Below, in pieces: positions 20,887-41,857 of a stretch of DNA of 59,977 nt. Under the pieces are notes generated by a model. It did not search any database, had not been told where the DNA came from, and saw only the letters and a program-made list of their open reading frames with translations. Every line of letters starts with the position of its first letter. Within the stretch, counting starts at the first letter, position 1. The translations under genes and the position numbers were made by a program. The DNA is from a virus (Duplodnaviria; Caudoviricetes), in IMG/VR virus record IMGVR_UViG_3300047281_000067, positions 1 through 59,977 of that record. One strand, given 5' to 3'.

Positions 20887-20891
20887 AGTTT

Positions 20892-21079: not shown

Positions 21080-21171
21080 GGAGAGTAATGCAGCGGGGAT
21101 GGTCCTGCGACTGGCCTTGAAAACCAGGTTCTCAGAAATGGGATGGGGTTCGACTCCTCTGCTCTCCGCCA
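21080..21171 (+). tRNA. tRNA-Ser(UGA) with 8/4 acceptor/T-stem fold
   Basis: ggagagta/tgctctcc 8 bp, gggg/cctc 4 bp T stem, long variable arm, G73, CCA. Confidence 0.75.
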
Positions 21172-21876: not shown

Positions 21877-21917
21877 CTCACTAGTTATATACATAGCATT
21901 AGATTGATAAAAAGTAA

Positions 21918-23351
21918 GTGGCAAATTTAATTTTATGGAACACATTAAATCACAATGTATTTTTAGTTAGACCAGTCGGTGCCCATCAAATTGCACAATG
22001 GTTGATAAAACACGGATACACGGTAAAGGTAATTGATTTTTGTAGTTCTATTTCTACTGATGATTTAGTTGAGATAACACGAAAATTTATTGATAACTCT
22101 ACTATTGCGGTGGGAGTTAGTTCTACATTTTGGAACCTGTTTGACCCGATTACAATAACATCTAGTTCTAGATATCCACAGGGTAATAAATTCACAGCAA
22201 TCGATCCAGACTGGGTTAACTCAGGTAGACGAAAAATTGAAAGCTTATATCCTGAATTAAAATGGTTATTGGGAGGGGCATCCTCACAAGCTATCAGTAT
22301 GCATGATTGGATAAAATTTCACGGTCATGCTGAGGATTCAATATTAAAATTTTTAGATGAAAAAAGTGGCAAAAATATCGCTAGGACACCATTTACAATA
22401 CAATCCATGGAGTGGTCATACGGTGAGGGATTAGGTATACTCCCTCATGAAGTATTGGGTATTGAACTTGGTCGCGGATGTCAATTTAAATGTGGATTTT
22501 GTAGATATCCTCTATTGGGTAAAAAGAAAAATTCTTATTTACGAAATTTTAACTTAGTCAAGCACGAATTAATCCAGAATTATGAAAAATTTGGTGTTAC
22601 ACGCTATTCATATTTAGACGATACAGTGAATGAAAGCTCTGAGAAAATAGAAATTATGGCTGATATCGCGCAGTCACTCCCGTTTAAATTAGAATGGGTA
22701 GGGTATGGTAGATTAGATTTAATTGGTTCAAATCGTCCATCGATACAAACTCTTAAAGATTCGGGGCTTCGTAGTATGTTTTTTGGTATAGAGACATTCC
22801 ACCCAACCGCAAGTAAAGCAATTGGAAAAGCTTGGAATGGTAAACACGGTAAAGAATTTTTGCTCGAACTCAAGGAAATATGGGGTAAAGAAATCAACTT
22901 TCATACTAACTTCATAGTTGGGCTCCCGGGCGAATCAGAAATTGATATAGATAATACAATTCAATGGTGTATTGATAATGATATCCCATCATGGAAGTTT
23001 GGCGCATTAAATATTTCAATTAGACAAGATTTACTGTTTAAGAGTGTATTTGATGAAAACTACGCAGAGTATGGGTATAAATTCACCAATCCATTGGATG
23101 ATTCTTATTGGGAAAATGAATACTGGAATGCTCAGACAGCAGTGGATAAGCAACTATCTGTTTCTCGTCAAAATAAGAATAGTCGCCCATCAGATTTCGC
23201 TTTAGCGAGTCTCGCTGGTCTTGGTTATTCAATAGATGAACTCATTAATACACCTCAGCACTCACTGCCATACGGTGATATGTTTAATAAGCGACAATCA
23301 CACATAGACCAATACGTTCATTATCAAAAAAATATTGCTAATGCGTACTAA
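21918..23351 (+). CDS. B12-binding radical SAM protein (class B-like)
   Basis: ELGRGCQFKCGFC CxxxCxxC, FGIET, FIVGLPGE; N-terminal Rossmann-like domain. Confidence 0.88.
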   Translation: MANLILWNTLNHNVFLVRPVGAHQIAQWLIKHGYTVKVIDFCSSISTDDLVEITRKFIDNSTIAVGVSSTFWNLFDPITITSSSRYPQGNKFTAIDPDWVNSGRRKIESLYPELKWLLGGASSQAISMHDWIKFHGHAEDSILKFLDEKSGKNIARTPFTIQSMEWSYGEGLGILPHEVLGIELGRGCQFKCGFCRYPLLGKKKNSYLRNFNLVKHELIQNYEKFGVTRYSYLDDTVNESSEKIEIMADIAQSLPFKLEWVGYGRLDLIGSNRPSIQTLKDSGLRSMFFGIETFHPTASKAIGKAWNGKHGKEFLLELKEIWGKEINFHTNFIVGLPGESEIDIDNTIQWCIDNDIPSWKFGALNISIRQDLLFKSVFDENYAEYGYKFTNPLDDSYWENEYWNAQTAVDKQLSVSRQNKNSRPSDFALASLAGLGYSIDELINTPQHSLPYGDMFNKRQSHIDQYVHYQKNIANAY

Positions 23352-23379
23352 GTCCTAGACAATTGAAAAAGTTAATAAC

Positions 23380-23454
23380 GGGTCTTTGGTGCAACGGATA
23401 GCATACGAGTCTTCGAAACTCATGACGCAAGTTCGATTCTTGCAGGACCCACCA
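23380..23454 (+). tRNA. tRNA-Arg(UCG)
   Basis: loop CTTCGAA, CCA. Confidence 0.9.
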
Positions 23455-23497
23455 AAACAATAGTTAAATACATATAACATAACCGCAGGAGAAAATC

Positions 23498-24058
23498 ATG
23501 TCCGTATTAGCACTAGATATCACAGGAGTTCCCAGACAGTGGATCTCTACTGATGACGCAATTACCTATCACGCAAAAAATGCAGTAGCATGGGCGCTAG
23601 GTGATATTGTGGCTAAATATCGTGGTGGTATACAAGAAGATGGTACACAGAGTTATCTGGAAACAACTAGTATTATTGCCATTAAAGGACACGGGTTCAA
23701 TCCGCACAAGCACGGCAAAGTGGTGCTGACTAACAAGACATTGTTTGGTCGCGATAGAAACGTATGTGCGTACTGCGGTAAACTATTTGCTAATCACTAT
23801 CATTTGTCTCGTGATCATATTCACCCTAAATTTAAAGGTGGAGAAAATACCTGGATGAATGTAGTTACATCTTGTAAAAGTTGTAACAGTGAAAAGGGAC
23901 ACAAGACGCTGAAAGAATTCGGCAAGGAACTGTTATATGCTCCGTATGTTCCCTCTCATTATGAAAATATGATTCTTCAACACAGGAACATTCTAGCTGA
24001 CCAAATGGAATATTTGTTATCAGGTGTTCCGAAAAATTCTAGAATCTGGTTAAATTAA
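23498..24058 (+). CDS. HNH endonuclease
   Basis: RDRNVCAYCG, SRDHIHP..GG, NVVTSCKSCNSEK. Confidence 0.9.
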   Translation: MSVLALDITGVPRQWISTDDAITYHAKNAVAWALGDIVAKYRGGIQEDGTQSYLETTSIIAIKGHGFNPHKHGKVVLTNKTLFGRDRNVCAYCGKLFANHYHLSRDHIHPKFKGGENTWMNVVTSCKSCNSEKGHKTLKEFGKELLYAPYVPSHYENMILQHRNILADQMEYLLSGVPKNSRIWLN

Positions 24059-24121
24059 ATTTCAATCATATTTACAAATGATAAATAACTATAGCAGCAA
24101 ATAACAACGCTGCTACCAATC

Positions 24122-24196
24122 GCCCGATTGGCTCAGGGGTAGAGCAACCGCCTTGTAAGCGGTAGGTCGTCTGTTCGAATCAGACATTGGGCACCA
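24122..24196 (+). tRNA. tRNA-Thr(UGU)
   Basis: loop CTTGTAA, CCA. Confidence 0.93.
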
Positions 24197-24203
24197 AATT
24201 TAT

Positions 24204-24278
24204 TCCCTAATAGCTCAGTGGTAGAGTAGTTGACTGTTAATCAATTGGTCCGTGGTTCGAGCCCACGTTGGGGAGCCA
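24204..24278 (+). tRNA. tRNA-Asn(GUU)
   Basis: loop CTGTTAA, GCCA. Confidence 0.95.
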
Positions 24279-24321
24279 AATATCTTAGTCAGCAATCGAA
24301 TATTATACACATAATACTATA

Positions 24322-25101
24322 ATGGATTCCGAATACACTATCAAAGAACTGTCTTACTTAAAAGCGAATCGATTATTGCCGCAAGTTCATAATACCCCCA
24401 GCCGGGTAGAAAAATTTTCGGGATATGATTCAGCTGGGTTATTTTCTGATAATTTACAAAAGCAAGATGCTTTGTGGAGATATAGGACCAAAGAAGTTAC
24501 TTATGTATTAAACGATCAATCATATCGTGCCCCGGAATGGAATTCTATTGATTGGAAAAATTCAGCGGTGATATTAGGTTGCTCTAATGTATTTGGGGTT
24601 GGATTAGCAGAAGATGAAACTATCAGTTATCAGTTATCATTATTGCTGAATCGGCCGGTTATCAATTTAGGTGTTGGTAGCTCCGGGATGTCTTTTGCAA
24701 TGCAAAATTCAGTTTTACTTAATAAAAACTTTCCTACTCCATGGGCTGTTATCAACATATGGTCGGATCCATTTCGCATTCATGAATTCATTGACAACAG
24801 ACTTATTTCACATTATACTGCTATGAGTTCTATATCAGGGAATTCTAACTTTAGTAAAAGTTGGGGTTCCTCAGAAATAAATCCAGAAATGTACAGTTAT
24901 TTTGCGTGTAAGGCTACTGAAGCAATTTGGTCATCAAAAACTAAATACTTGTCATACTCACATTGGGCTCCCCTAGACAGTAGTTCAATTAAAAGACTGC
25001 CCTTTATCCCCGGAGATTTGGCCCGAGATTTGGCTCACCCAGGATCAAAAATGGCTGTTGCGGTTGCAGAAGTCTTAGCTACAGCCCTAACAAAGACTTG
25101 A
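24322..25101 (+). CDS. SGNH-hydrolase-like protein
   Basis: LGCSNVFGVG, INLGVGSSG, C-terminal ARDLAHPG (DxxHP). Confidence 0.65.
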   Translation: MDSEYTIKELSYLKANRLLPQVHNTPSRVEKFSGYDSAGLFSDNLQKQDALWRYRTKEVTYVLNDQSYRAPEWNSIDWKNSAVILGCSNVFGVGLAEDETISYQLSLLLNRPVINLGVGSSGMSFAMQNSVLLNKNFPTPWAVINIWSDPFRIHEFIDNRLISHYTAMSSISGNSNFSKSWGSSEINPEMYSYFACKATEAIWSSKTKYLSYSHWAPLDSSSIKRLPFIPGDLARDLAHPGSKMAVAVAEVLATALTKT

Positions 25102-25455
25102 CATTAAATCGTTTCTTTGTTATAATAGATACAAGAAACAAAATTCTGGCGTTCGTATAATGGATAATACAGGGGATTTCTACTCCCTAAATAGCAGTTC
25201 GATTCTGTTACGCCGGACCAAATTAAAACACATTGTCCTAGGCTGTGACCTAGTCCATCAGAAGTCCAAAGAGACAGAAGCAGTGTGTTTTAATTTGGTT
25301 CTGTTGTTTAAATACAACGAGAAAAGAGTTGACATTAAAGCACAATGGTGCTATAATAGATACTTAGATTGATAGAAGACTTCTTTCAACAGGCTCTTAA
25401 AAGTTTGAAGAAAGTTAAAAAAGAAGTTGACAATTAATCAAAACGGTGTTATAAT
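25098..25455 (+). promoter_or_regulatory. three sigma70 promoters (-35 at 25098, 25329, 25427) with boxA-like elements downstream
   Basis: TTGACA-17-TATAAT three times; gctcttaaaa (~25393) and gttcattaaaaa (~25494). Confidence 0.8.
25146..25220 (+). tRNA. tRNA-Arg(UCU)
   Basis: loop TTTCTAC, CCA overlapping a conserved hairpin. Confidence 0.85.
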
Positions 25456-25875
25456 AGACACATAGCAACAAACGATAGAGTTAGTTGCGTAAAGTTCATT
25501 AAAAATTTACAAGTATAGATTTCTTGCTGAGACAACACTAAACGATTATGTAAAGTGATAACAGTCCGCAATGCTGTGAAGCAAAGCGTAGCGAGAAGTT
25601 ATATTAAAACATATTGTATCACAGGATCGTGCATTGGTAGTTCAAGCAGGGGAAATGATGTAGTGTGTTTCAATATAACAAAGAAGTTATAGTAAAACAT
25701 ACTACACCGTGGGGGCTACGAACCACATAAAATAAATAAGTAGGAAAAGTAGTATGTTTTACTATAAGTTATATTTCAGTATATTACTTGCCTGAGCGTA
25801 AAACTCGTGGTAAACTACAAAAGACAGAGGGTTCGAATCCCTGGGACTGGTAGTGTATTGAAATATAACACATAT

Positions 25876-25950
25876 GTACATGAGCCCGAAGATTGAGGGT
25901 GCTGACTGAAACTCAGTGAAAGGCGATTGAAATGATACCCATGTACGCCG
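25876..25950 (+). pseudogene. degenerate tRNA-Phe(GAA)-like element
   Basis: gtacatg/catgtac acceptor, gctga-CTGAAAC-tcagt arm; T arm degenerate; ends GCCG. Confidence 0.45.
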
Positions 25951-25955
25951 AATAT

Positions 25956-26040
25956 GGAGATGAAGCATCAATGGTGATGCAGTGGACTGTAAATCCGCCG
26001 CTTAACAGCACGCTTGGTTCGATCCCAAGAATCTCCACCA
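25956..26040 (+). tRNA. tRNA-Tyr(GUA)
   Basis: loop CTGTAAA, long variable arm, CCA. Confidence 0.9.
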
Positions 26041-26182
26041 AGAGCAGCGATGGGTTACATCATCAGTATGAGCAGCAAGGTACCTAGGTAAATCCTTGGG
26101 CGAGCAATAGTACAAACACAATGTAACAGGCGATAGTGATCTATCATGGGCGGAGTCCTCAAAACGCTGTCCACCAAATTTC

Positions 26183-26257
26183 GACGCATTCGTCTAATGG
26201 TTAGGACACCAGGTTTTCATCCTGGGAACAGCGGTTCAATTCCGCTATGCGTTACCA
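26183..26257 (+). tRNA. tRNA-Glu(UUC)
   Basis: loop TTTTCAT, CCA. Confidence 0.92.
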
Positions 26258-26259
26258 AG

Positions 26260-26920
26260 TTTAGTAGTCGGTCAGAAGGCTGATAATTTATGAGTTGAAG
26301 CTCATAAGCTACTTTTTTATTTCGGAGACTGAAACTTATTTTGGTGCAGCGGTTGCTGGAGGCGGCCTGTCTGTTCGAGGATAAGCGGATAAAGTGGACG
26401 GCATATAGGTAAGTGACTAGGCGAGGACGGTAACAGTCCTTTGCGCTGAAACCGACCGCCCGTATGTAGGCTGTCTCCATCTTTTACTAAGACAATACTG
26501 AGTAAGATGAGTATCAAGAATCAAGTGGAAAGCAAGAGCCACAAAGTAAACGCTAGTCATCCTGGTTCCTCGGTGACACAATGCAGTGATACACAGCAGA
26601 AAAAAAGCGGGGTAAGAGTCCCCACGTAGAGGATGCCACTAATACTAAGACAATACTGAGTAAGATGAGTAGATGGATACGAGCCGTAGGCGACTGCGGT
26701 CATCACAGCAATGTGACAAACGATAAGCAAAGTCGGTCCAGTAGGGGTATGAAAAGTATTGTTGGCGGTGATGTTGCTGAAGGACAGAAGCTTATGACTC
26801 CACGACACTCTGTGGTGATCACAGGCGCCGTGTAATCCTTCCCTAATTTTGCGGTAGCCCCGCAGACGACTCAGTACTTGGTCGTAACATCATGTACCCA
26901 TTAGGTGAGAAGCCTATCAT
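26260..26920 (+). ncRNA. candidate large structured ncRNA (unidentified)
   Basis: ~660 nt GC-elevated gap between tRNAs with no credible ORF; 29 nt direct repeat at 26485-26513 and 26643-26671. Confidence 0.45.
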
Positions 26921-26925
26921 TATTT

Positions 26926-27000
26926 GGGGGATTGGCGTAATTGGTAACGCAGTAGCTTTGCAAGCTTCAGTCAAGAGTTCGAATCTCTTATCCTCCACCA
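26926..27000 (+). tRNA. tRNA-Ala(UGC)
   Basis: G3-U70, loop TTTGCAA, CCA. Confidence 0.92.
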
Positions 27001-27006
27001 GAACAT

Positions 27007-27081
27007 ACTCAGTTCGACTATCGGTTAGGTCAGGATACTTTCAATTTCCAGAGAGGGGTTCGACTCCCCTACTGAGTACCA
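27007..27081 (+). tRNA. tRNA-Glu(UUC)
   Basis: loop CTTTCAA, CCA. Confidence 0.88.
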
Positions 27082-27089
27082 AGAATTTA

Positions 27090-27164
27090 GCGGCATTCAT
27101 ATAACGGTCATTATCTCGGATTGTCTATCCGAAGACGGGAGTTCGACTCTCCCATGTCGCGCCA
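27090..27164 (+). tRNA. tRNA-Asp(GUC)
   Basis: loop TTGTCTA, GCCA. Confidence 0.88.
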
Positions 27165-27171
27165 AGTTTAT

Positions 27172-27249
27172 CTGTGTGTGAGAAAGTCCGGTTAATCTAC
27201 TCGCCTTGGAAGTGAGAAATCGTAGGTTCGAATCCTACTACACAGACCA
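27172..27249 (+). tRNA. tRNA-Pro(UGG)
   Basis: loop CTTGGAA, CCA. Confidence 0.87.
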
Positions 27250-27254
27250 TATAT

Positions 27255-27329
27255 GCCGTAGTAGTCCTCGGGGAGGGCAACTGATTGTCTATCAGTACCA
27301 GGCGAGTTCGAGTCTCGTCTACGGCGCCA
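27255..27329 (+). tRNA. tRNA-Asp(GUC)
   Basis: loop TTGTCTA, GCCA. Confidence 0.87.
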
Positions 27330-27336
27330 AGTTTAT

Positions 27337-27412
27337 TCCTCAGTAGCTCAGTTGGTAGAGTACAGCACTGTTAATGCTGGTGTCAGTGGTTCGAGCCCAC
27401 TCTGAGGAGCCA
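27337..27412 (+). tRNA. tRNA-Asn(GUU)
   Basis: loop CTGTTAA, GCCA. Confidence 0.94.
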
Positions 27413-27480
27413 AGTTAAGTTGTTATAGTGAGTCGCTATGCGATAAACTTTAAGTAGAGATTATAACAACTCATTAGTTT

Positions 27481-27539
27481 TAGGATGCGTTCAGCAAATA
27501 AAAAAATTCAACTTTTAATTGAAAAATAAGCATCCTGTT
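27481..27539 (+). ncRNA. Y-like RNA copy 3 with Lys(UUU) anticodon stem-loop
   Basis: aggatgc/gcatcct helix + GTTCAGCAA; ttcaa-CTTTTAA-ttgaa. Confidence 0.72.
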
Positions 27540-27546
27540 GTATTAA

Positions 27547-27620
27547 GTCTCTCTGGTGTAATGGCAGCACCGCGGTCTCCAAAACCGTCAGTCTAGGTTC
27601 GAATCCTAGGGGGGGCGCCA
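27547..27620 (+). tRNA. tRNA-Trp(CCA)
   Basis: loop CTCCAAA, GCCA. Confidence 0.92.
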
Positions 27621-27677
27621 AGTATAAAAATAAAGAGTAAGTATACATGTACTAAATATGTGTATAGCAAAGAGTTT

Positions 27678-27754
27678 GCCCCTATAGCACAATTGGTTGG
27701 TGCGTTCGACTCATAATCGAGAGGCTACTGGTTCAAGTCCAGTTGGGGGCACCA
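27678..27754 (+). tRNA. tRNA-CAU (Ile2 or Met)
   Basis: loop CTCATAA, CCA. Confidence 0.9.
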
Positions 27755-27760
27755 AGTTAA

Positions 27761-27834
27761 GCGGGATTCGTAAAATGGCATTACCTTAGATTTCCAATCT
27801 AAAGTCAACAGTTCGATTCTGTTATCCCGCTCCA
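27761..27834 (+). tRNA. tRNA-Gly(UCC)
   Basis: loop TTTCCAA, U73, CCA. Confidence 0.9.
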
Positions 27835-27907
27835 GAGTTAAGATGTTACCCATTTGGGTTGATGTCAATGAATAAAAGTAGTATAATAACTACTAGTTAG
27901 AAACAAT

Positions 27908-27991
27908 GCGAGAGTGGTGGAACGGTATACACAGCAGACTTAAAATCTGCCGCCTAACAGCTTGCGGGTTCGAATCCCGCCTCTCGCACCA
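27908..27991 (+). tRNA. tRNA-Leu(UAA)
   Basis: loop CTTAAAA, long variable arm, CCA. Confidence 0.95.
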
Positions 27992-27997
27992 AGAATC

Positions 27998-28089
27998 GGA
28001 AGCGTGGCCGAGTGGCCGAAGGCAACTCCTTGCTAAGGAGTCGACCCCTTTAAACGGGTCCGTGAGTTCGAATCTCACCGCTTCCTCCA
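27998..28089 (+). tRNA. tRNA-Ser(GCU)
   Basis: loop TTGCTAA, long variable arm, CCA. Confidence 0.93.
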
Positions 28090-28121
28090 AACACTCACAA
28101 TCATTAACACAAGGAAACACA

Positions 28122-28286
28122 ATGAAACCCACAAAGACTTTCAAACTGACAAAACGTACAAAGACAATCATGGCTCTAATTGGCTTTGCCGATCAAAGCC
28201 AGCGCAATGCGTTCAAGAATATGATGGTTCAAGCGCAGTTGGCCAGTGAAGTACGACCAGCAAAAGATAAGTCAGATCGTAAGTAA
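28122..28286 (+). CDS. small basic hypothetical protein
   Basis: AAGGA RBS; MKPTKTFKLTKRTKT...; the longer track ORF runs through tRNAs. Confidence 0.65.
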   Translation: MKPTKTFKLTKRTKTIMALIGFADQSQRNAFKNMMVQAQLASEVRPAKDKSDRK

Positions 28287-28292
28287 ATAAAT

Positions 28293-28368
28293 GTACGTGT
28301 GTCCTGAATGGTTAGGGAGCGGATTGCAAATCCGTATTATGCAGGTTCGAGTCCTGTCACGTACTCCA
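28293..28368 (+). tRNA. tRNA-Cys(GCA)
   Basis: loop TTGCAAA, U73, CCA. Confidence 0.92.
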
Positions 28369-28375
28369 AATAAAC

Positions 28376-28451
28376 ACCAAGATAGCTCAGATGGTAGAGC
28401 AGTGGCCTGAAAAGTCATGTGTCGCAGGTTCGATCCCTGCTCTCGGTACCA
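28376..28451 (+). tRNA. tRNA-Phe(GAA)
   Basis: loop CTGAAAA, CCA. Confidence 0.93.
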
Positions 28452-28456
28452 AATAA

Positions 28457-28530
28457 GCCCTGTTAGTTAAGTGGTAGAACACGTGTTTTGTAATCACGGG
28501 ATGGCAGTTCGATTCTGTCACGGGGCACCA
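28457..28530 (+). tRNA. tRNA-Thr(UGU)
   Basis: loop TTTGTAA, CCA. Confidence 0.87.
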
Positions 28531-28727
28531 AGTTTTGAGAACCTGTAGCTTACTGCCTAGAGTAGTAAGTAACCGAAAGGGTAAGATAGAGCTATGTTAG
28601 ATACATAGGCAGGAATCTCGATTAAGTTTAGTAAGACACGCGGGTTGACCACAACGACACGCATCAAGGTAAGGTGTCTGAAGTGTAAGTAGCAGGTTTG
28701 GTCATGCTTACATACGAAAAAGTTTTT

Positions 28728-28801
28728 CTCGGTATAGTGAAATGGTATCACTCGACGTTTGGGACGTTGGAGCGTAGGTTCGATTCCTGCTACCGAGACC
28801 A
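28728..28801 (+). tRNA. tRNA-Pro(UGG)
   Basis: loop TTTGGGA, CCA overlapping a conserved hairpin. Confidence 0.9.
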
Positions 28802-29402
28802 TATTAAAACACACTAGTTCTTAGGGTTGTTCCGAAGATAATTATCTCCAATGGAGTCCTAGTATGTTTTAATATGGTAAATGTAGGCACCAACCTACTG
28901 CTAGGGTACGTCCCCGGTTTAATCTTTCTGAGCGATAAAGTAGCCGCTGTAAGCAATACACCTTCTCCGCACGAAATGGATGGTTACCATGGAAGGCGAA
29001 CGACTGAAAAAGAGAAAAAGCGAAAGAAAGTCAGAGATTGGTACTGACACCATATTGAAGTACATTGTGGAGAGCACTGTGTAGACTGAGAAGGTTTGAT
29101 TCCGACTCACTACATCACTCGGTATCCTGCGGCCGCAACAGTGTATTTCAATATGGTAATAACCAACAAGTTTTGTAAGTGTTAGCAAGAGAAAGTCACG
29201 CTATGTACTATTCTTCGAAGGTGGTACAGAAGTAAAAGGTCAAGTGGGTTCAACTCCCAGCCGCGCTCTTAAAGTGAAAGCGGCGCAGATTGGTTGCCGG
29301 TGCTGGACAAAGTATTCCAAGTAACATACCGCTCCCGTCCGGACTAGTTAAATCGGGAGAAGCGTTGAGATACAAGCGGCTCAACTACTTACAGATTCAA
29401 TT

Positions 29403-29463
29403 TAGGATGCCTACTGCAAACATAAAACTTTCACTGTAAATGAAAAAAATGTGCATCCTGTTA
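29403..29463 (+). ncRNA. Y-like RNA copy 4 with Tyr(GUA) anticodon stem-loop
   Basis: aggatgc/gcatcct helix + CTGCAA; tttca-CTGTAAA-tgaaa. Confidence 0.72.
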
Positions 29464-29475
29464 TATTATCGGTTT

Positions 29476-29596
29476 TAGGATACATTCAGCAACACTTAAT
29501 ATCAAGCAGTATGTCAGTGGTTCGAATCCACTCCGAGGCGAAAGCTAAGGTAGCTCAGTTGGTAGAGCAACAGCCAATAAAAAGCGTATCCTGTTA
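29476..29596 (+). ncRNA. Y-like RNA copy 5, YrlA-type permuted tRNA mimic
   Basis: aggatac/gtatcct helix + TTCAGCAA; T arm agtggTTCGAATccact, then GAAA-capped acceptor-like stem, then D arm tagctcagttggtagagc. Confidence 0.8.
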
Positions 29597-29601
29597 TATA
29601 A

Positions 29602-29676
29602 GCTCGTTTAGCACAGCGGTAGTGCGCTATCTCGACAAGATAGAGGTCAAAAGTTCAAATCTTTTAACGAGTACCA
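29602..29676 (+). tRNA. tRNA-Val(GAC), C33
   Basis: loop TCGACAA, CCA. Confidence 0.85.
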
Positions 29677-29694
29677 ATCAACATAAGGAATTAT

Positions 29695-29868
29695 ATGAGC
29701 AAAGGCGACCGCCCAAGAAAACCCACAATTCCATTAGTGGAATTTAATAGCAAACTAGATACGATCTTCGGTGTAAAGCCGCCGAAAGAGCGATGGGTTG
29801 CTCCTCCCCTCCCAGTAGATGAACCAGTTGTAAAGAAAAACATCTGGGCATCTGATAAAGAAGTTTAA
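29695..29868 (+). CDS. small hypothetical protein (MSKG..PR family)
   Basis: AAGGA RBS; MSKGDRPRKPTI..., similar to the ORF at 37141. Confidence 0.6.
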   Translation: MSKGDRPRKPTIPLVEFNSKLDTIFGVKPPKERWVAPPLPVDEPVVKKNIWASDKEV

Positions 29869-29968
29869 TAAAGAAAGACTATATGAAGCGAAGTTCAGCT
29901 AAACTATAGTGTCCCTTGGATCTCCGTATGGTCTAGGGTGGCACGTAAAAGAAAACTAATACGAACAC

Positions 29969-30043
29969 CCATGCTAAACTTTAGTGGTGAAGTAACCGGC
30001 TCTTAACCGGAGGAACAGAGTTCGAGTCTCTGAGCATGGACCA
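29969..30043 (+). tRNA. tRNA-Lys(CUU)
   Basis: loop CTCTTAA, CCA. Confidence 0.87.
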
Positions 30044-30045
30044 TA

Positions 30046-30120
30046 CGGGGTATAATTCAATGGTTAGAATAGTCGGCTTTTAACCGATCTATCACGGTTC
30101 GAGTCCGTGTGCCCCGACCA
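30046..30120 (+). tRNA. tRNA-Lys(UUU)
   Basis: loop CTTTTAA, CCA. Confidence 0.92.
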
Positions 30121-30228
30121 TAAGCAAGCACATTATTTAAAAAGGAACGCAAGTTCTAGGCATAGCCAATGGCATCGTAACGGTGGGTAGTGTGCTTACT
30201 TATGGTAACAACAAGATAAGAGAAAAAT

Positions 30229-30477
30229 ATGTTTAAAGTTTATTATACTGATCCAATCACTGATTCCTCTCATGCTCACAATGTTGCTTCATTGAATGAA
30301 GCACTACGCCATACAGAAGGGTTTCGCAAACTAGGCATGACCTTTGTTACTATGGTAGCAGAGGATCCAAATCAAGTTGGTAAGTCTGGCGTTGATTCAA
30401 TCGTAGATGGCAAGTGTCCGGACGGCGTTGCTTACGATTGGAATAAGTCCAGTCGCATTGGCGCAACAAGACGATAA
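30229..30477 (+). CDS. conserved hypothetical protein
   Basis: FVTMVAEDPNQVGKSGVD...YDW motif. Confidence 0.7.
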   Translation: MFKVYYTDPITDSSHAHNVASLNEALRHTEGFRKLGMTFVTMVAEDPNQVGKSGVDSIVDGKCPDGVAYDWNKSSRIGATRR

Positions 30478-30491
30478 CGATAAATAATTTC

Positions 30492-31835
30492 ATGCCTAAT
30501 AAAAATATATTTTGTTCTAGTCCATGGTTACATATTAAAATTGACTACGATGGAAGATTTGTTCCGTGTCGATGGCAGTCAACAATCAATCCTGAAGTTG
30601 ATTCTAGCAATTTACGCTCAATGAGTATCTTAGAATTTTACAATTCATCTAGAATGAACCAGTTTAGAAGCAATCTTTTAGAAGGTTCTGACCTAACTGA
30701 ATGTTCTTCATGTAAGTATGAAGATTCATTCGAAAAGGTAAGTGGTAGATTAAAACAGTTATATCGCAGTGGTATTGCTATCGAATCATTTGATCGAGAC
30801 TTTTCAAAAAGTCATCACTATGAATTGTTTAACTACAGTACTGATAACAATGGTCAAACTAATGCCTACCCGTACGATTTTCAAATTAATTTGAGTAATG
30901 TGTGTAATAGTGCTTGTATTATGTGTGCTCCGCATTTTAGTACTCGTCTAGTTCAAGATTATCAGAAACTATCAAAATTCGCCCCGGTATTATTTAAACA
31001 ACCAAAAAAAATTAATTGTTGGGCAGATGATCCTTCACTCGTCGAAAAATTTATACGTGATATTAAAGAATTACCGTACATTGATTATATACATTTGTTG
31101 GGCGGTGAAACTCTCTTATTAGAAAGTTTTTACACAATATGTGATGCATTGATTGAATCCGGACTATCAAAAACTATTTATTTAGGTACTACTACTAATT
31201 TAACAGTGTATTCACCTAAAATTGAAAATATTGTTACTAAGTTCTCTAAATTTCACTTAGGATTGAGTATTGAATCAGTTAATCCGTTGAATGATTATAT
31301 TAGATATCCGTCTAAGATCACTGGCATATTAGAAAATTTATCAAAATATTTATCCCTAAGAGATAAATATCCGGACAAACTACACATGTCATTGCGCATC
31401 ACTCCTAATATTTTTAGTATTTTTTATATTGATGAAGTTATACAATATATGTGTGATAATGACATAACTGGCGAAAGTTGTAATATATTGATTCGTCCTG
31501 AATGTTTGCGAATGGAATTAATGCCGGAAAATATACGATTGCTCACTATTGAAAAACTTAACGCAGTGATTAACAAAAATGAATTGTCTCGGGCCAAAGT
31601 AGTAAATATTCGAGACAATAATCTAACGCGAGAAGTGATTTCCACTATTGCGTTCACATACGTTGATTTCTTAGAAAATCTAGTTCTACCGTCGGACGGT
31701 GAAAAACAACGACATGATCTAGTAACATTCCTTCATGGATTTGAGTCTATAAGAGGAAATTCAATATTAGACTATGCCCCGGAGTATGAAACATTTCTAA
31801 AAGCATATGGTTATACGCGCCCACTTGACATTTAA
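30492..31835 (+). CDS. radical SAM protein with N-terminal twitch/SPASM-like domain
   Basis: FCSSPW..PC, ECSSC, CNSACIMC, LGGETLL, YIRYP. Confidence 0.88.
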   Translation: MPNKNIFCSSPWLHIKIDYDGRFVPCRWQSTINPEVDSSNLRSMSILEFYNSSRMNQFRSNLLEGSDLTECSSCKYEDSFEKVSGRLKQLYRSGIAIESFDRDFSKSHHYELFNYSTDNNGQTNAYPYDFQINLSNVCNSACIMCAPHFSTRLVQDYQKLSKFAPVLFKQPKKINCWADDPSLVEKFIRDIKELPYIDYIHLLGGETLLLESFYTICDALIESGLSKTIYLGTTTNLTVYSPKIENIVTKFSKFHLGLSIESVNPLNDYIRYPSKITGILENLSKYLSLRDKYPDKLHMSLRITPNIFSIFYIDEVIQYMCDNDITGESCNILIRPECLRMELMPENIRLLTIEKLNAVINKNELSRAKVVNIRDNNLTREVISTIAFTYVDFLENLVLPSDGEKQRHDLVTFLHGFESIRGNSILDYAPEYETFLKAYGYTRPLDI

Positions 31836-32203
31836 TGCGAATGCTGCTATAATAGACACATACGATAAGAAAGCAACTTCTAATCAGTTTGAAAGAACAG
31901 AAAAAGAGGTTGACATTTAATCAAAACGGTGTTATAATTAATACTTAGACAGCAGCAAGTGAGAAACAATGACAACTTCAACTAAAGTAATACAAGTTTG
32001 TAAAGAGAACAAAGTTCTTAAATTCATTACAACCCGTTTATTTGTAATCATTCTTGGGCTGTTGATTATCAGTAAAGGATTGGTTAATCCAACTAAAATG
32101 TTGGCTCAACTTGAAAATTCACTTGACAATTAATCAAAACGGTGTTATAATAGACACATAGCAGAAAATGATAGAGTTAACTGCTAAACGATCTTTAAAA
32201 AGT
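31825..32203 (+). promoter_or_regulatory. three sigma70 promoters (-35 at 31825, 31910, 32123) with boxA-like element
   Basis: TTGACA-17-TATAAT three times; 32123-32163 duplicates 25427-25467; gatctttaaaaa at ~32190. Confidence 0.8.
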
Positions 32204-32217
32204 TAGAAAATAATTTA

Positions 32218-32291
32218 CCCGGATAGCTCAGTGGTAGAGCAGTACCTTGATAAGGTATTGGTCGCAAGTTCAAATCTTGCTCCGGGTACCA
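32218..32291 (+). tRNA. tRNA-Ile(GAU)
   Basis: loop TTGATAA, CCA overlapping a conserved hairpin. Confidence 0.93.
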
Positions 32292-33631
32292 TATTGAAAT
32301 GCATTAGATACCTTTTAACATACGTTCGCCCGGCGCTCTTGTATGTTAGATACCTTTTAGTGTGTTTCAATATGGTAACAAAGGAGTAATTACCCTTAGC
32401 CAGAATCGGAATTGATCATCCGATAACCTCGCACTCTTCTAGTGGTCAGGAAGCCCTTTGGGAAACGTTGGTTCGATTCCAACATGCAATGAGGTTGCTA
32501 TATTAAAGTACATTCGATCAGCAACCGTTTCGCACTGCTTTCGGTCAATGTTTTAGTGAATGTACTTTAATATGGTAAGTTGATTGAATCGTGGTTAACT
32601 CCACCAGACCGAAACGTCTAGAGCGTGTCGAAGTAAGATTCCAGCTGCCATATTAAAACATATTTCGTGTTAGGGGTAAGCCGTATAACGTTTTCGGACA
32701 CGGGTCAAGTATGTTTCAATATGGTGATAGCTTAGTAGGAGAGTGCAGCGTTGTCGCGCTGCGGGCATAGGTGCAAATCCTGTTCACTGTTTAGGTTCCG
32801 GTGTAAGGTCATTCCTTACCGTAAACGTCAGCGTTAGGCGTGACATCCTTGAAGAGACAGGGGCCATATATAAACACACATAAGTGACTGGTTAGTCCCA
32901 GACTCCACGTGTAAGACTGGTATAAGTGTGTTTTTATATGGTGACCTCAAGTCCAAAGGAAGGAAAGGGCGTGTTTGAATGGACAAATTGCAGTTCCTTC
33001 TAGGGTCCGGCTTGTCAGCTTTGGGGCGGCGCACCATTCTATATTAAAACACATTGCCGAAGTTGGTTCGGTTAGACAGGGAGATCCAATTGCCCATGTC
33101 GTTAGTGTGTTTCAATATGGTATATCAGTTTTTAGTGAGTCATATACGGGACTGCCACTCGCGGGATACTGAGACTCGGAATCTCGGACACTAATTACAG
33201 AAGCAGTGCTAGGTGCATCTGGCATTGTTGATACACCATATTAAAATACATTAGAGAAGAAACTCCATATCACCCAGGGAAGGATATGGTTTGACGGCAC
33301 AGACTAGGAGGTGTAGCAATACATCGGCGATGCTTGCTAGTGTATTTTAATATGGTCCTTGTATAATCCACTGAAGTTTGATTTTTCTAGATACAGTTAA
33401 ACATAGGGTCTAGGTAGTTTAGGATTATCTGTTATATTTGAGGCATTAGATATAACGTGTTGTGGGTTCAAGGCCTACCAAGGATCACCATATTAAAGCA
33501 TACTCACCGACCATTTAAAATTGACACGGAGGTAAAGCTAGGTTTTGTCAATGCTACCTAGTGGAGTATGTTTTAATATGGTAAAGCAAATTGAGTTCAA
33601 TGGTCACACGCCCTTGCTCATTATGAAAGTT

Positions 33632-33752
33632 GCCATAGTTGAATACATTGTTTAGCTCAGTCGGTAGAGCGACCACTATTATACTAGTTACGTGGGGATA
33701 AATTGTCACAGAGCGCGGGTTCGAGTCCCGCAATAGTGTATTCAACTATGGT
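33632..33752 (+). ncRNA. tRNA-like RNA whose acceptor stem is the ~20 bp conserved hairpin
   Basis: D arm tagctcagtcggtagagc and T arm gcgggTTCGAGTcccgc stacked on gccatagttgaatacattgtt/aatagtgtattcaactatggt. Confidence 0.65.
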
Positions 33753-35068
33753 ATGTCACAGATGAAAATTATCATCCTTCGAAAGATGATTACAGTAATC
33801 TAAGATAAGCAGCGGAGCAATAGAGACTAGAGGGCTGCCGGCCCACCGTGCTCAGATGCTAACACGAGTAAATGCATGGAAAATGTTAGATGCTTGACAG
33901 ACCATATTAAAACACACAAAGGTAGTTGCAACTACTGATGTTGGTATAGCTCTTACTCGCAGAGTGAGCAAGCGGTTCGATTCCGCAGTGTGTTTTAATA
34001 TGGTATTCAAGTCGAGCGGGATTAAGTTCAGTCGGTGCGTAATAGCACAGAACATGTAGCTGGTAAATGGTGCAGGCAGTTGGTATAGTACCCAATAAGT
34101 AAAAACATTAGCCTGATTAAATAGCCCGTGGCGACCTACTTGGTATCATTTCAATAATTAGTCCCGCCAAGCCTACACGAACATTTCCCTAGTTTGTGTG
34201 GCTCAAACCGGTCGAGGTAGATGTAAGCTCTATCATTAAAAATGTACATACTACTGGCGCAGTGTGACAGGATTTCTAGCCCGAGGATTGTCGTCCAAGA
34301 AATGCGGAACAACAAGAGTGAAAACTTTTGCCGACTCAGAAGACACTGTGGAGATCATCTTAGGGGATGGTCGCCATAGTTGAATACATTGTCAAGTGCC
34401 TGACTGAAACGGGCGTCGAGTACGTAGAACGTGGGAAGAAGGTGCGGAAGAAGGTGCAAATCCTTCATACTCTATTTCAGACTTGCTAGTGTATTCAACT
34501 ATGGTTAGTATCAGAGGATGGGAACGAAACAGGGTTGCTAGTCACAATCAATGTCGTGAACGGGTGCTGAGAAGTTTCGAGAGCAGGCCTGACCGCTGGA
34601 GGGTAGAAACACCATATAAAAACATTTTTGACGGGGAAGGTGCTGCAACTAAAAGCGGTAATTACTTCGGTCCTCTGGTAGGGGCGAAACGTTCTTTGTA
34701 CCAGCATTGAACTAATATTGAAAATGTTTCTATATGGTCAGTTGAGAAGATTGGGTAATCTCTTAGACATTCAACTAAGAGGCCATATTAAAATACATTG
34801 ATTGTGATTTGCTTACGGAGCGACTCCGTTAGAATCCGTTAAACGATAAAAGCATAAAGGTTAAAGTCCTTTACGGTGTGTTTTAATATGGTGATAGTTT
34901 AATGATAGAACGGCGGGCACACAGGTTAAGACGCCTACTCGTATATGCAGGTTCAATTCCTTCTCACCATTTAGAAAATAGTTCCGGGTTTGTTTACCCC
35001 GCGGAGAACACGGCGGTTTTGTTGAGATTATAATCTCAACAACTCAGGGAGCCTAACGTAAACACACT

Positions 35069-35144
35069 GGAGCAGTAACATAGCGGCTAATGTATCTCCC
35101 TGTCTAGGAGACTATCGTGGGTTCGAGTCCCATCTGCTTCGCCA
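35069..35144 (+). tRNA. tRNA-Asp(GUC)
   Basis: loop CTGTCTA, GCCA. Confidence 0.9.
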
Positions 35145-35179
35145 ATTTTAAATTGTCATTAGTTATGAATGATAAATAA

Positions 35180-35515
35180 ATGTATATGATTGAAAATCGA
35201 CGAGGACGGCTAAGATACTATCTTAGAGATGCTAAACTAAGGGCTAAGAAAAAATCATTACCCTTTGACTTAGATTTAAATTTTTTAGATTCTATCGCCA
35301 CTGATAAATGTCCAATTTTTGGGACAGCGTTTATTTTTGGAGAAGCAACTAAGTTGTCACCGACTTCTCCGTCTTTAGATCGAATTATTCCATCTAAGGG
35401 ATATGTTAGGGATAATGTTGTTTTTATTAGTCATCGGGCAAATACAATAAAGCATAATGTAGTTGGGCCGGATGACTTATATAAGGTAGCTGATTGGTTA
35501 AGTAGTAAAATATAG
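35180..35515 (+). CDS. putative His-Me finger (HNH-like) endonuclease
   Basis: CPIFG...SPSLDRIIPSKGYVRDNVVFISHRAN. Confidence 0.7.
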   Translation: MYMIENRRGRLRYYLRDAKLRAKKKSLPFDLDLNFLDSIATDKCPIFGTAFIFGEATKLSPTSPSLDRIIPSKGYVRDNVVFISHRANTIKHNVVGPDDLYKVADWLSSKI

Positions 35516-35520
35516 AATAA

Positions 35521-35608
35521 GGAAGATTGGCAGAGTGGCCGATTGCATCAGTCTTGAAAACTGAAGGCTCGAAAGGGTCCGAGAGTTCGAATCTCTCATC
35601 TTCCTCCA
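35521..35608 (+). tRNA. tRNA-Ser(UGA)
   Basis: loop CTTGAAA, long variable arm, CCA. Confidence 0.95.
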
Positions 35609-35635
35609 GCATAAATACTAAATCAGGAGTGACAA

Positions 35636-35869
35636 ATGATTTTAGTAGAACAGTTAGTTGAGTTAGCAGAAGAAATTGAAATAGGTGACCCAATTGATTG
35701 GGGTATGCTTGATGTTAGTGAGCATGAAGCGTATATGTTAATTGCGCCGAGTGTTTTGGAAAACTTTAACTTGACAGAAGTTAAACATCGTGATATAATG
35801 ATGTTAGCAACGATAGTTAAGTTGACGGTAGAAAATTTTGCTTTAAATCTAACGCTGTTACAACGATGA
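35636..35869 (+). CDS. hypothetical protein
   Basis: AGGAG RBS, 77 aa. Confidence 0.65.
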   Translation: MILVEQLVELAEEIEIGDPIDWGMLDVSEHEAYMLIAPSVLENFNLTEVKHRDIMMLATIVKLTVENFALNLTLLQR

Positions 35870-35897
35870 TAATTAATACCAAGTAAGGTACTAGATA

Positions 35898-36695
35898 ATG
35901 CCACAAGATATACACTTACTTTATTCCGGCGGATCCGGAGGATTTTTTTGTCTACACTTATTGTTATTGACAGGTAAATATAATTGTAAATTTAATTGTG
36001 ACACACAAGACTATCAAACTATTTTTAAAAATCACTGGAATATAAATTCTGACCATTGGAAAAAATCAGAAATTTGGCCGCTAAATTCAAACACATTTGA
36101 GTCAAATCTGACAAATAAATTGTATTATACATGTAATCCAAAAGGTGATGCTCTTACGCGATTTAATGGAACAACAATTGTTCTATATACTGATATCGAA
36201 ACTCAGTGGTTTTTAGCAAAAACAAAACATGCTCTATGGTTTACCAAAGATGAAACTTTTAAAGAACAACGTTTGTGTTCATTAAAAGAACATCAGCGTA
36301 ATCAATTTATATTATTGTATTACCAAGTGAAGGCTCCTGACTGGCCATTGTGTAATTCTATAGAGGAATTTTTTAATCTTCCCGAAGTCATACAGCATGA
36401 GTGTATAGATCAATTTAATTTCAATGACGTATTAGATATTGACAAGTTTTTGATACAATTTAAAGAGTCTGGTTCAATTACATATAATGGTGAAAAGATA
36501 ACACGTCTTTTAAAAACTGATATAGATATTGACGAGGCAGACATACGTATTAAATTACATGACCTAATTAAAACTAAAGGTGAAGTATTATTTGAACAAT
36601 TGGGAATACACGGTAACGAAAAGACTAGAGATTTTGTAGATATGTATATACAATTGCATACTCCGGAGCAACAGCAGTATTTGTTAAAAAAATAA
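35898..36695 (+). CDS. hypothetical protein
   Basis: 265 aa; YSGGSGGFF N-terminal loop, YYQVKAPDWP motif. Confidence 0.65.
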   Translation: MPQDIHLLYSGGSGGFFCLHLLLLTGKYNCKFNCDTQDYQTIFKNHWNINSDHWKKSEIWPLNSNTFESNLTNKLYYTCNPKGDALTRFNGTTIVLYTDIETQWFLAKTKHALWFTKDETFKEQRLCSLKEHQRNQFILLYYQVKAPDWPLCNSIEEFFNLPEVIQHECIDQFNFNDVLDIDKFLIQFKESGSITYNGEKITRLLKTDIDIDEADIRIKLHDLIKTKGEVLFEQLGIHGNEKTRDFVDMYIQLHTPEQQQYLLKK

Positions 36696-36742
36696 ATATA
36701 ACGCTGTTACAGCGGTGATAAATAAGTATTGTTAAGTTAATT

Positions 36743-36827
36743 GCCCCTTTGGCGGAATTGGTAGACGCGCCAGATTTAGGTTCTGGTATCGAGAGGTGTA
36801 GGAGTTCGAGTCTCCTGAGGGGCACCA
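36743..36827 (+). tRNA. tRNA-Leu(UAG)
   Basis: loop TTTAGGT, long variable arm, CCA. Confidence 0.95.
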
Positions 36828-36875
36828 AATATATATTAAAGCGCATTAAGTGTTCTTTGCTATATAAGAATTTGT

Positions 36876-36951
36876 GGGGGTGTAGCTCAGCTGGGAGAGC
36901 GACTGCTTTGCAAGCAGTAGGTAGCGGGTTCGAGTCCTGTCACCTCCACCA
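36876..36951 (+). tRNA. tRNA-Ala(UGC)
   Basis: G3-U70, loop TTTGCAA, CCA. Confidence 0.95.
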
Positions 36952-36958
36952 AGTATTA

Positions 36959-37032
36959 CGCGGGTAGGGTAGTCACCACACCGGTCTCATAAGCCAGGTG
37001 CATCGGCAGTGCGAATCTGTCACCCGCATCCA
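36959..37032 (+). tRNA. initiator-like tRNA-Met(CAU), atypical D arm
   Basis: C1:A72 mismatch, loop CTCATAA, T loop TGCGAAT, CCA. Confidence 0.7.
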
Positions 37033-37036
37033 ATTT

Positions 37037-37112
37037 GGATCCTTAACTCAGTTGGTAGAGTGTTGCGTTTACATCGCAAATGTCGGCGGTTCGAGCCCGT
37101 CAGGATTCACCA
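37037..37112 (+). tRNA. tRNA-Val(UAC)
   Basis: loop TTTACAT, CCA. Confidence 0.93.
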
Positions 37113-41059: not shown

Positions 41060-41857
41060 ATGCAAGTTCTATTACAAGACATTAGTACATACGAAACCAG
41101 AACTATCAGTCAAGCATGTATGCTATCTGATATAAAGGTACATCGTACAAGTTTAGGAATGTTACAAACACTCTTTGACTTCAAGACTGAATTACTACGA
41201 GGGGATTTAATGCCCGTTGGTAGTGTAGAGTTTGTAAGAGAATGTTTCTCTATCATGGATATAGAATCACCCGGGTGGTCCTCATATCCCGACGAATTAG
41301 AAGAATTCTTACACAGAAAACTTAAAGTACGCAGTGCACCTTATATTCGCATAATGTATACTTCTCAAGCAATAGAGACACCCGTGTTCATCAAACCAGC
41401 ATATCAAGTAAAATTGTTCAACGGGTTTGTATTTTATCCTACTAAAAAGCGGGAAGATTATGATGAACATGATCAAGAGCAGTGGGATATCGTAATGTCA
41501 GCGGACAATAAGACATTATTGTGTATCAGCGATGTAGTAGACTTTCATAGTGAATGGCGATATTATATCGATGACAATAAGATCATTGGGTCAGCAAGAT
41601 ATGACGATGGTCCTGATTCAGCATTAGCACCAGAGATAGATGTAGTCAATCAAATGATTGAGGCTATGCCGATAAATCATCCTTACACATTGGATGTAGG
41701 GAGACTGTCAACTGGTGGCACCGCTTTGGTGGAAATCAACGATGCTTGGGCAATCGGGTTGTACGGTAAAGCATTAACCCCAAGAGTTTATTTAGACTTT
41801 TTGGGTAAACGATGGAAATCAATTGTTGAAAAACACTTGACAAGTAATCAAAACTAA
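41060..41857 (+). CDS. ATP-grasp domain protein (DUF4343/R2K-like)
   Basis: PVGSVEF, YPDEL..FLHR, VFIKP, SEWRYYI, TLDVG, LVEIND.WAIGLY. Confidence 0.8.
   Translation: MQVLLQDISTYETRTISQACMLSDIKVHRTSLGMLQTLFDFKTELLRGDLMPVGSVEFVRECFSIMDIESPGWSSYPDELEEFLHRKLKVRSAPYIRIMYTSQAIETPVFIKPAYQVKLFNGFVFYPTKKREDYDEHDQEQWDIVMSADNKTLLCISDVVDFHSEWRYYIDDNKIIGSARYDDGPDSALAPEIDVVNQMIEAMPINHPYTLDVGRLSTGGTALVEINDAWAIGLYGKALTPRVYLDFLGKRWKSIVEKHLTSNQN

Follow-up and report, generated by a model that had tools for sequence, protein, structure and literature searches.

A hairpin-punctuated row of spacers with tRNA-style ends, probably encoding small stable RNAs, in the tRNA island of an uncultured phage

What is encoded between the repeated hairpins of a phage transfer RNA (tRNA) island is the question raised by the IMG/VR record IMGVR_UViG_3300047281_000067 (Duplodnaviria; Caudoviricetes), a fragment of an uncultured phage genome whose complete 59,977 bases are the window analysed here. 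All long open reading frames (ORFs) of the window lie on the + strand, and so do the 40 tRNA genes that ARAGORN calls over 19,750-37,112, to which Rfam contributes a few extra (one at 20133-20203, with 48.7 bits, is missing from the ARAGORN list). Within this island about 2.7 kb (32,292-35,068) hold no ORF longer than 75 amino acids (aa), and at 32,288-34,971 twelve copies of a hairpin, each with a closing stem of about 20 base pairs (bp) and a variable insert of 30-90 nucleotides (nt), alternate with twelve spacers. An earlier note on this DNA took the spacers for tRNA mimics sharing their GGT and RCCA ends with the stems, and proposed that the array either yields many CCA-terminated RNAs or is a nursery or graveyard of tRNA variants. 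The sharing of ends proved correct, and we regard the array as probably a punctuated row of small stable RNAs with tRNA-style ends within the tRNA island, released by a processing route that we infer.

The hairpins follow a common plan (Table 1). In each of the twelve stems 17-20 of the outer 20 positions are paired, an almost perfect duplex of some 20 bp; the 3' arms all terminate in ATATGGT, and the 5' arms open with RCCATAT, apart from two that open GCTA and TCTA. All twelve spacers start with GGT and ten end with RCCA, the other two ending GCTA (32497) and TCTA (33038), and these ends are held in common with the stems. The same arrangement is found at true tRNAs, since tRNA-Arg (25146), tRNA-Pro (28728), tRNA-Lys (30046) and tRNA-Ile (32217) each share their ACCA with the stem that follows, as had been pointed out before. 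Beyond the array the hairpin family has eight further members or variants, and three of them sit immediately 3' of tRNA-Arg, tRNA-Pro and tRNA-Lys.

In order to compare this arrangement with that of other phages, contigs were fetched by the stem motifs in two IMG/VR motif scans and oriented by the strand of their tRNAs; all figures given for them are figures among the matches listed, and numbers with the prefix L (L161 or L242, for example) denote loci in these other phage contigs. tRNAs are present at 57 of the 59 stem-bearing loci of the first set, often 10-30 at each. Of 338 stems located outside the window, 151 begin precisely at the CCA of a tRNA called by ARAGORN; 38 reach into the following tRNA and stop at its first G (nucleotides 1-2), another 42 stop 5-10 nt short of one, and 25 share bases with a tRNA on either side. 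By this registration of the stems on the CCA and the first G of tRNAs, the spacers are tRNA slots that share their ends with the stems, and their GGU...RCCA ends are tRNA-style ends imposed by the design of the junction. CCA is encoded by 2,088 of the 2,156 tRNAs of these phages, whether a stem follows or not. The oriented consensus of the hairpin reads 5' RCCAUAUURAARCACAUU...UAGUGUGUUUYAAUAUGGU 3', and its arms covary. Among 305 distinct stems, G.U pairs outnumber A.C combinations (639 vs 113) and a U.G wobble is kept at position 17 in 219, both of which indicate that the structure is selected on the tRNA strand. The duplex is of the form and length of an RNase III processing stem, and in the relatives its junctions coincide with the CCA and G+1 of tRNAs.

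The helices might also be drawn in a shifted register, in which the 3' arm of one repeat joins the next 5' arm, so that the "spacers" would be loops and the "loops" spacers, and neighbouring arms do pair at 16.2 of 20 positions on average (pairs I19 and I22). Pairing within the stem is better, however, with a mean of 18.8 over the same 20 positions, and true tRNAs occupy the slot position. Moreover, the arm variants CCAAATT/AATTTGG, CCATAGTTGAAT/ATTCAACTATGG and CCATATTCAAGC/GCTTGAATATGG covary within stems and not across them, from which the hairpins as drawn are taken to be real helices. The comparison of alternative pairings that the earlier note had asked for thus upholds these hairpins, and we judge the shifted register to be extremely improbable.

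All arms belong to one family and each 3' arm is by design complementary to the next 5' arm; the GGT/RCC closure of a spacer is therefore not an independent signal. Pairing continues well beyond it (7-10 pairs) in four of the twelve spacers, among them slot 5, one of the spacers already singled out for its pairing, which closes with 10 pairs and one mismatch. Summed over the twelve spacers, the extra terminal pairs amount to 64 against 50.9 +/- 4.8 after shuffling (P = 0.009, one mismatch or an ACCA-overhang register being allowed), and contiguous extra pairing in the GG:CC register shows no excess (3.67 pairs vs 3.50 shuffled). The extra pairing once called frequent is consequently present but modest. 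The leading GG of most spacers is predicted to be base-paired to the CC of RCCA, which would leave no free CCA tail, and for these the notion of an array of CCA-terminated RNAs is not supported. The proposed role of the stems in sequestering or maturing CCA ends fits the anatomy.

The slots probably hold a mixture of small RNAs: four contain tRNA-derived modules, at least three to five hold conserved folded RNAs that are not tRNAs, and three or four have no known relatives. The view of the spacers as tRNA mimics therefore stands for slots 1, 3, 6 and 12 and fails for the remaining eight, which show neither a tRNA match at E <= 10 nor a strict T-arm, slots 7 and 10 being unlike tRNA. The cut-off of the Rfam tRNA model (RF00005, 29 bits) was reached by two of the twelve spacers, through slot 12 and slot 3a, the latter being an element with D- and T-arms already recognized; the other ten were unmatched even at E <= 10, and at that threshold a search of 32200-35200 with Rfam returned tRNA plus chance-level matches only. 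A normal anticodon loop is found in none of the four tRNA-like slots, nor does any of them have a 5-bp anticodon stem with a 7-nt loop, and these modules are accordingly mimics and not decoders. The tRNA-shaped domain of slot 1 is built from an acceptor-like stem (10 bp, with a bulged AAU), a D-arm, a strict T-arm (32467-32483) and, where an anticodon arm would be, a stub of 3 bp; ten related loci were found, and in a subfamily of four sequences compensatory changes occur at 14 of 32 predicted pairs. Slot 3a, which overlaps the last 4-5 bases of the preceding stem, has its anticodon arm replaced by a 6-bp stem, capped by a 6-nt loop here and by a 3-nt loop in its three relatives (88% identity), with a compensatory change within the replacement arm. 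In slot 12 the "CCA" lies inside the acceptor stem, leaving no free CCA, and the anticodon region is abnormal, with a 19-nt insert. Only slot 6 is predicted from the DNA to combine an acceptor stem, a discriminator and a free CCA; its 8-bp terminal helix, free ACCA and strict T-arm agree with what had been noticed earlier, a large insert replaces its D and anticodon arms, and the Rfam tRNA model did not match it even at E <= 10. Beyond the called tRNAs, strict T-arm hairpins occur six times on the + strand against once on the entire - strand. Those at 20984-21000, 26013-26029 and 29516-29532 (+) lie elsewhere in the island, which probably contains further tRNA-like elements.

Relatives in other phage contigs were found for seven of the twelve slots at 72-92% identity, a range comparable to that of tRNA-Ile (72-88%). 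The family of slot 7 is represented in 24 viral contigs, and in an alignment of 16 sequences 97.3% of cells pair, with compensatory changes at 4 of 16 pairs. Likewise, the family of slot 10 occurs in 14 viral contigs, and nine sequences pair in 97.6% of cells over 23 pairs, 14 of which show compensatory changes. The covariation score of the latter was reached by none of 500 shuffles; slid controls pair in 27-53% of cells, a comparison biased in favour of the structures of slots 7 and 10, since both had been deduced from those very alignments. A divergent member of the slot 10 family (L240:1541-1665) keeps its GGT...ACACCA ends despite different flanking arms (AGG / CCTAAG), which hints that such ends are a property of the slot RNA and not of the stems alone. 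A hammerhead-like reading of this family, based on CGAAAC and GUC motifs, was dropped, as the CUGANGA box is absent and Rfam returned nothing. The conserved module of slot 9 is matched by L189 over about 150 nt at 68%, and by L175 and L187 over just 27 and 65 nt. Helices are thus kept through compensatory changes in three slot families (slots 1, 7 and 10), two of which (7 and 10) are devoid of tRNA features, so that the cross-phage comparison once suggested as a check does reveal conserved structure.

Table 1. Positions in the window of the slots, hairpins, neighbouring genes and matching contigs from RNA libraries
Feature	Position	Strand	Description
Slot 1	32374-32500	+	Two conserved 5' hairpins, then tRNA-shaped domain 32425-32496; ends GCTA
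Slot 2	32574-32650	+	77-nt RNA, no tRNA features; one relative, L161, 81%
Slot 3a	32721-32791	+	tRNA-like, acceptor AUGGUGA/UCACUGU; Rfam tRNA 42.4 bits; no 3' CCA
Slot 3b	32802-32866	+	Second module of slot 3; one relative, L052, 82%
Slot 4	32940-33041	+	Ends TCTA; no relative in DNA fetched
Slot 5	33119-33238	+	120 nt, 10 terminal pairs and one mismatch; L165 and L166 82% over full length
Slot 6	33354-33490	+	8-bp acceptor-like helix stacked on strict T-arm 33462-33478, then free ACCA (minihelix)
Slot 7	33580-33635	+	56-nt hairpin RNA with invariant 21-nt top (UUCAAUGGUCACACGCCCUUG); not tRNA-like
Slot 8	33750-33904	+	Eight terminal pairs and one mismatch; no relative in DNA fetched
Slot 9	34002-34376	+	Composite, with a conserved module of about 190-230 nt as its 3' part (about 34148-34376)
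Slot 10	34503-34614	+	112-nt multi-helix RNA; not tRNA-like
Slot 11	34736-34785	+	50 nt; no relative in DNA fetched
Slot 12	34888-34971	+	tRNA-like, acceptor AUGGUGA/UCACCAU; Rfam tRNA 42.2 bits; no stem after it
Punctuation hairpin	32288-32376	+	Opens with the four bases ACCA of tRNA-Ile (32217-32291)
Punctuation hairpin	32497-32576	+	Loop 90% identical to L074
Punctuation hairpin	32647-32725	+	
Punctuation hairpin	32863-32942	+	
Punctuation hairpin	33038-33121	+	Conserved over entire element; 77-90% identity to L164, L017, L246, L250, L252
Punctuation hairpin	33235-33356	+	
Punctuation hairpin	33487-33582	+	
Punctuation hairpin	33632-33752	+	Encloses tRNA-like sequence 33646-33739
Punctuation hairpin	33901-34004	+	T-arm-like hairpin stacked on 3' strand
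Punctuation hairpin	34373-34505	+	Arm variant shared with 33632-33752
Punctuation hairpin	34611-34738	+	
Punctuation hairpin	34782-34892	+	75% identical to L209
Hairpin-family members or variants outside the array (eight)	19675-19748, 25217-25299, 25596-25680, 25684-25770, 25763-25874, 28798-28878, 29049-29157, 30117-30206		
S-adenosylmethionine (SAM) synthetase	15000-16100		Shortly upstream of tRNA island
Two radical SAM proteins (one with SPASM domain) and HNH endonuclease	21918-23351, 30492-31835, 23498-24058		Within tRNA island
R2K-clade ATP-grasp protein	41060-41857		Adjoins Ro60-like gene on upstream side
Protein with Ro60-like predicted fold (TROVE + vWA), 471 aa	42109-43524	+	Pfam: DUF2828 + DUF7788; 7-10 kb downstream of array
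Band 7/SPFH protein	56743-57663		Farther downstream of Ro60-like gene
RNA-library contig	32308-32509		Identical; covers slot 1
RNA-library contig	32593-32743		Covers slot 2
RNA-library contig	32758-32908		
RNA-library contigs	33947-34328, 34020-34223		Cover slot 9
RNA-library contig	34512-34636		Covers slot 10, 6 differences
RNA-library contig	34815-34965		Covers slot 12

The inserts of the hairpins also carry recurring elements. The tRNA-like sequence enclosed by the hairpin at 33632-33752 has a 38-nt insert in its anticodon region and uses the inner pairs of the hairpin as its acceptor stem, and a relative in L076 is 72% identical. Outside the array, the hairpin at 25763-25874 contains a T-arm-like hairpin (GAGGGTTCGAATCCCTG), and in other contigs stem inserts (L041, L057, L069, L078, L079 and other locus groups) also group into families shared between contigs, such as TTCAGGT...ATACGGAG. 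The cargos of the hairpins may be RNAs with roles of their own. Stem-to-stem slots that lack a called tRNA number 99 in the fetched contigs, with a GGT start in 96 and an RCCA end in 79, and fall into 58 similarity clusters. The order in which the slot RNAs follow each other is not fixed: a slot 7-type RNA, one stem and a slot 10-type RNA succeed one another in L242, L259 and L260, the reverse order is found in L248 and L249, and a 33038-type hairpin directly precedes the slot 7-type RNA in L246 and L250. As the neighbours of the slot RNAs differ between contigs, the stems are junctions of exchangeable units, and recombination at the stem repeats is a plausible cause of the exchange of cassettes. 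Many tRNAs that have no stem after them (26257, 27164, 27329 and 28530, for instance) carry AGTTTA or AGTTAA directly after their CCA, a trailer that may be a second, shorter junction signal.

Based on this anatomy, we hypothesize that the tRNA island would be transcribed on the + strand as a long precursor, in which the first bases of a hairpin would serve as discriminator and CCA of the preceding RNA and its last GG(U) as the start of the following one. The stems of about 20 bp could be cut by a double-strand nuclease such as the RNase III of the host, by RNase P acting at G+1, or by the two together, and trimming of the slot RNAs would then leave a GGU/RCC(A) end that is closed or, for the minihelix of slot 6, a free ACCA. 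Contigs that match several of the slots and stems with complete or nearly complete identity occur in three metatranscriptome runs, which stem from three studies, and this is a hint of expression.

Several points weigh against this proposal. The contigs from RNA libraries are of low depth, with unreadable ends and DNA carry-over not excluded. The ORFs scanned in the window include no gene for an RNA-processing enzyme, and RNase III is absent from all five large stem-bearing phage records searched, one of them complete, so that any cutting would be the task of the host. Slots 4, 6, 8 and 11 (32940, 33354, 33750 and 34736) are without relatives among the fetched DNA, the spacers fold with ordinary energies (z from -2.3 to +1.6), and the terminal GGU/RCC helix is invariant, which makes covariation uninformative on it. 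The loci were selected for the stem motif, and the counts hold for stem-bearing contigs, not for phages generally. Lastly, the strand-specific G.T (G.U) bias of the stems fits a single-stranded DNA hairpin too.

This last point also favours an explanation at the DNA level, according to which the stems would be inverted repeats belonging to an element, mobile or recombinational, that targets tRNA ends, comparable to a miniature inverted-repeat transposable element (MITE), a repetitive extragenic palindrome (REP) or an attC-like hairpin, with the spacers as intervening DNA and the repeats shuffling cassettes. A palindromic repeated family with variable cargo, slot RNAs whose neighbours differ between contigs and an HNH endonuclease gene within the island are what such an element might leave. 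Nevertheless, no transposase, RAYT or integrase was found among the window ORFs tested, the exact registration on CCA and G+1 together with the wobble at position 17 answers the needs of an RNA processing signal, and conservation extends to the slot RNAs and the stem cargos; we hold it unlikely that the array is explained in this manner, and as the way in which it evolves a DNA-level repeat is compatible with a row of processed RNAs. The proposal of a graveyard or nursery, in which the spacers would be decaying or newborn tRNA genes without a function of their own and only the stems and the true tRNAs would matter, draws on the slots being tRNA positions, on the tRNA pieces with broken anticodon arms in four of them, and on the four slots without relatives and the ordinary folding energies. 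It is contradicted for the slots with relatives, since their conservation is about that of tRNA-Ile, three families show compensatory change, the families of slots 7 and 10 retain no trace of a cloverleaf, and the replaced anticodon arm is itself conserved in the relatives of slots 3a and 1. Decay or recent origin may thus apply to the four slots that lack relatives, and as an account of the array we find it still less likely than a DNA-level repeat.

If the spacers are RNAs, the tRNA-shaped ones might have a protein partner encoded nearby. The model of the 471-aa protein obtained with AlphaFold has a predicted local distance difference test (pLDDT) value of 71, and its 13 best fold matches in the PDB are all Ro60/TROVE proteins, including the Ro60 of a Thermus phage (E 9e-7 to 4.5e-4). 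A protein language model concurs, as clusters of TROVE and vWA_Ro60 account for 25 of the 30 matches of the DUF2828 + DUF7788 protein, while a sequence search of the PDB gave no match and Ro60 was reached through the fold search alone. Using tblastn, homologues of the DUF2828 + DUF7788 protein were detected in GenBank phages of many host genera (706 records), annotated mostly as hypothetical or "RNA-binding protein". In PMC4201824, YrlA RNAs are described as tRNA mimics with D and T arms, located near Ro60 genes in bacteria and phages, and their Ro-binding motif is given as GNCGAAN0-1G. Slot 1 resembles them in that it is tRNA-shaped, has D and T arms but lacks an anticodon, and lies in the same region as a gene for a protein of Ro60-like predicted fold; DUF2828 genes lie within or beside the tRNA island in three of the five large stem-bearing records. 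It differs from them in that no Ro-binding motif is conserved, no Y RNA family of Rfam matches 32200-35200 at E <= 10, and the gene, at least 7 kb distant, is not adjacent. In fact, the two hits of the motif in the region (32627 and 33056), against 20 on the + strand of the window, are at chance level; slot 1 has none, and L161, the relative of slot 2, does not retain the motif. The quality of the model is moderate (template modelling score, TM, 0.35-0.55), and the protein is missing from two of the five records, one of which is the sole complete stem-bearing genome. We therefore consider it doubtful that some of the slot RNAs, above all 32425-32496, are Y-RNA-like partners of the modelled Ro60-like protein.

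Several known systems share single features with the array. The tRNA cluster of phage T4 reportedly contains two small stable RNAs that are not tRNAs (species 1 and 2), co-transcribed with the tRNAs and matured by host enzymes, species 1 being cut by RNase III. The likeness would lie in non-decoding small RNAs among phage tRNA genes, and the difference in there being two such RNAs and no known repeated punctuation hairpin in T4, as opposed to about a dozen in a row with one hairpin family here; the two are set apart by description. RNase III processing stems are found in the early transcript of T7 and as leader-trailer stems of ribosomal RNA operons. By analogy, the duplexes of about 20 bp described here would bracket stable RNAs of a long precursor in the same fashion, whereas one conserved sequence is here reused dozens of times, on the CCA and G+1 of tRNAs and with conserved cargo. 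Bacterial RNase P accepts a minihelix or hairpin substrate made of a stem, one base and CCA, a form that slot 6 resembles with its 8-bp helix on a T-arm followed by ACCA, but which is seen in one of the twelve slots, the CC being predicted elsewhere to pair with the 5' GG. GOLLD and ROOL are, according to PMC12286853, large phage RNAs of 500-800 nt or longer, often near tRNA islands; like the slot RNAs they are structured phage RNAs beside tRNA arrays, but they are far larger, and their Rfam models found no match at the gathering cut-off, at which tRNA was the only match in the window. None of the T4 RNAs, YrlA, RNase III stems, RNase P minihelices, GOLLD or ROOL fits as a family. A description of the hairpin or of the slot RNAs was found neither in Rfam nor in the literature searched, to which the supplements of PMC10690425 did not belong; that 2023 catalogue, in which 8,495 candidates for structured RNAs were drawn from IMG/VR, may list some of the motifs in its supplements.

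The sequencing runs containing the record are labelled as freshwater or aquatic metagenomes. GenBank phages gave no match to 32200-35200, and none to the stem element at E <= 10, although the low-complexity filter of BLAST may mask its AT-rich arms. Relatives sought through the neighbouring radical SAM protein yielded just proteins of 26-30% identity. Scanning a genome collection with a 19-mer of the 3' arm returned eight matches, about the number estimated by chance, of which one contig of a metagenome-assembled genome (two matches) alone appears real, and the host can thus not be named.

As a rule, a phage tRNA island is taken to be a list of tRNAs, whereas here a large share of the island encodes other conserved folded RNAs with borrowed tRNA ends, and the same RNA families recur across dozens of uncultured phage contigs. 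More speculatively, and with clearly less confidence than we place in the row of small RNAs itself, freshwater jumbo phages might possess a modular small-RNA platform, in which a hairpin set on CCA and G+1 makes of any insert a stable, tRNA-ended RNA matured by the tRNA machinery of the host. Such a platform could carry at least a dozen RNA families that are new, among them tRNA mimics lacking an anticodon that may act with a phage Ro60-like protein or as decoys in a contest over host tRNA, its cassettes being swapped by recombination at the hairpins. If the slot RNAs are made as stable RNAs, they would offer several new phage RNA families for study and a natural counterpart of the engineered tRNA-spacer arrays that release many small RNAs from one transcript, and such islands would be a place to seek RNA partners of phage Ro60-like proteins and tRNA decoys in the conflict between phage and host.

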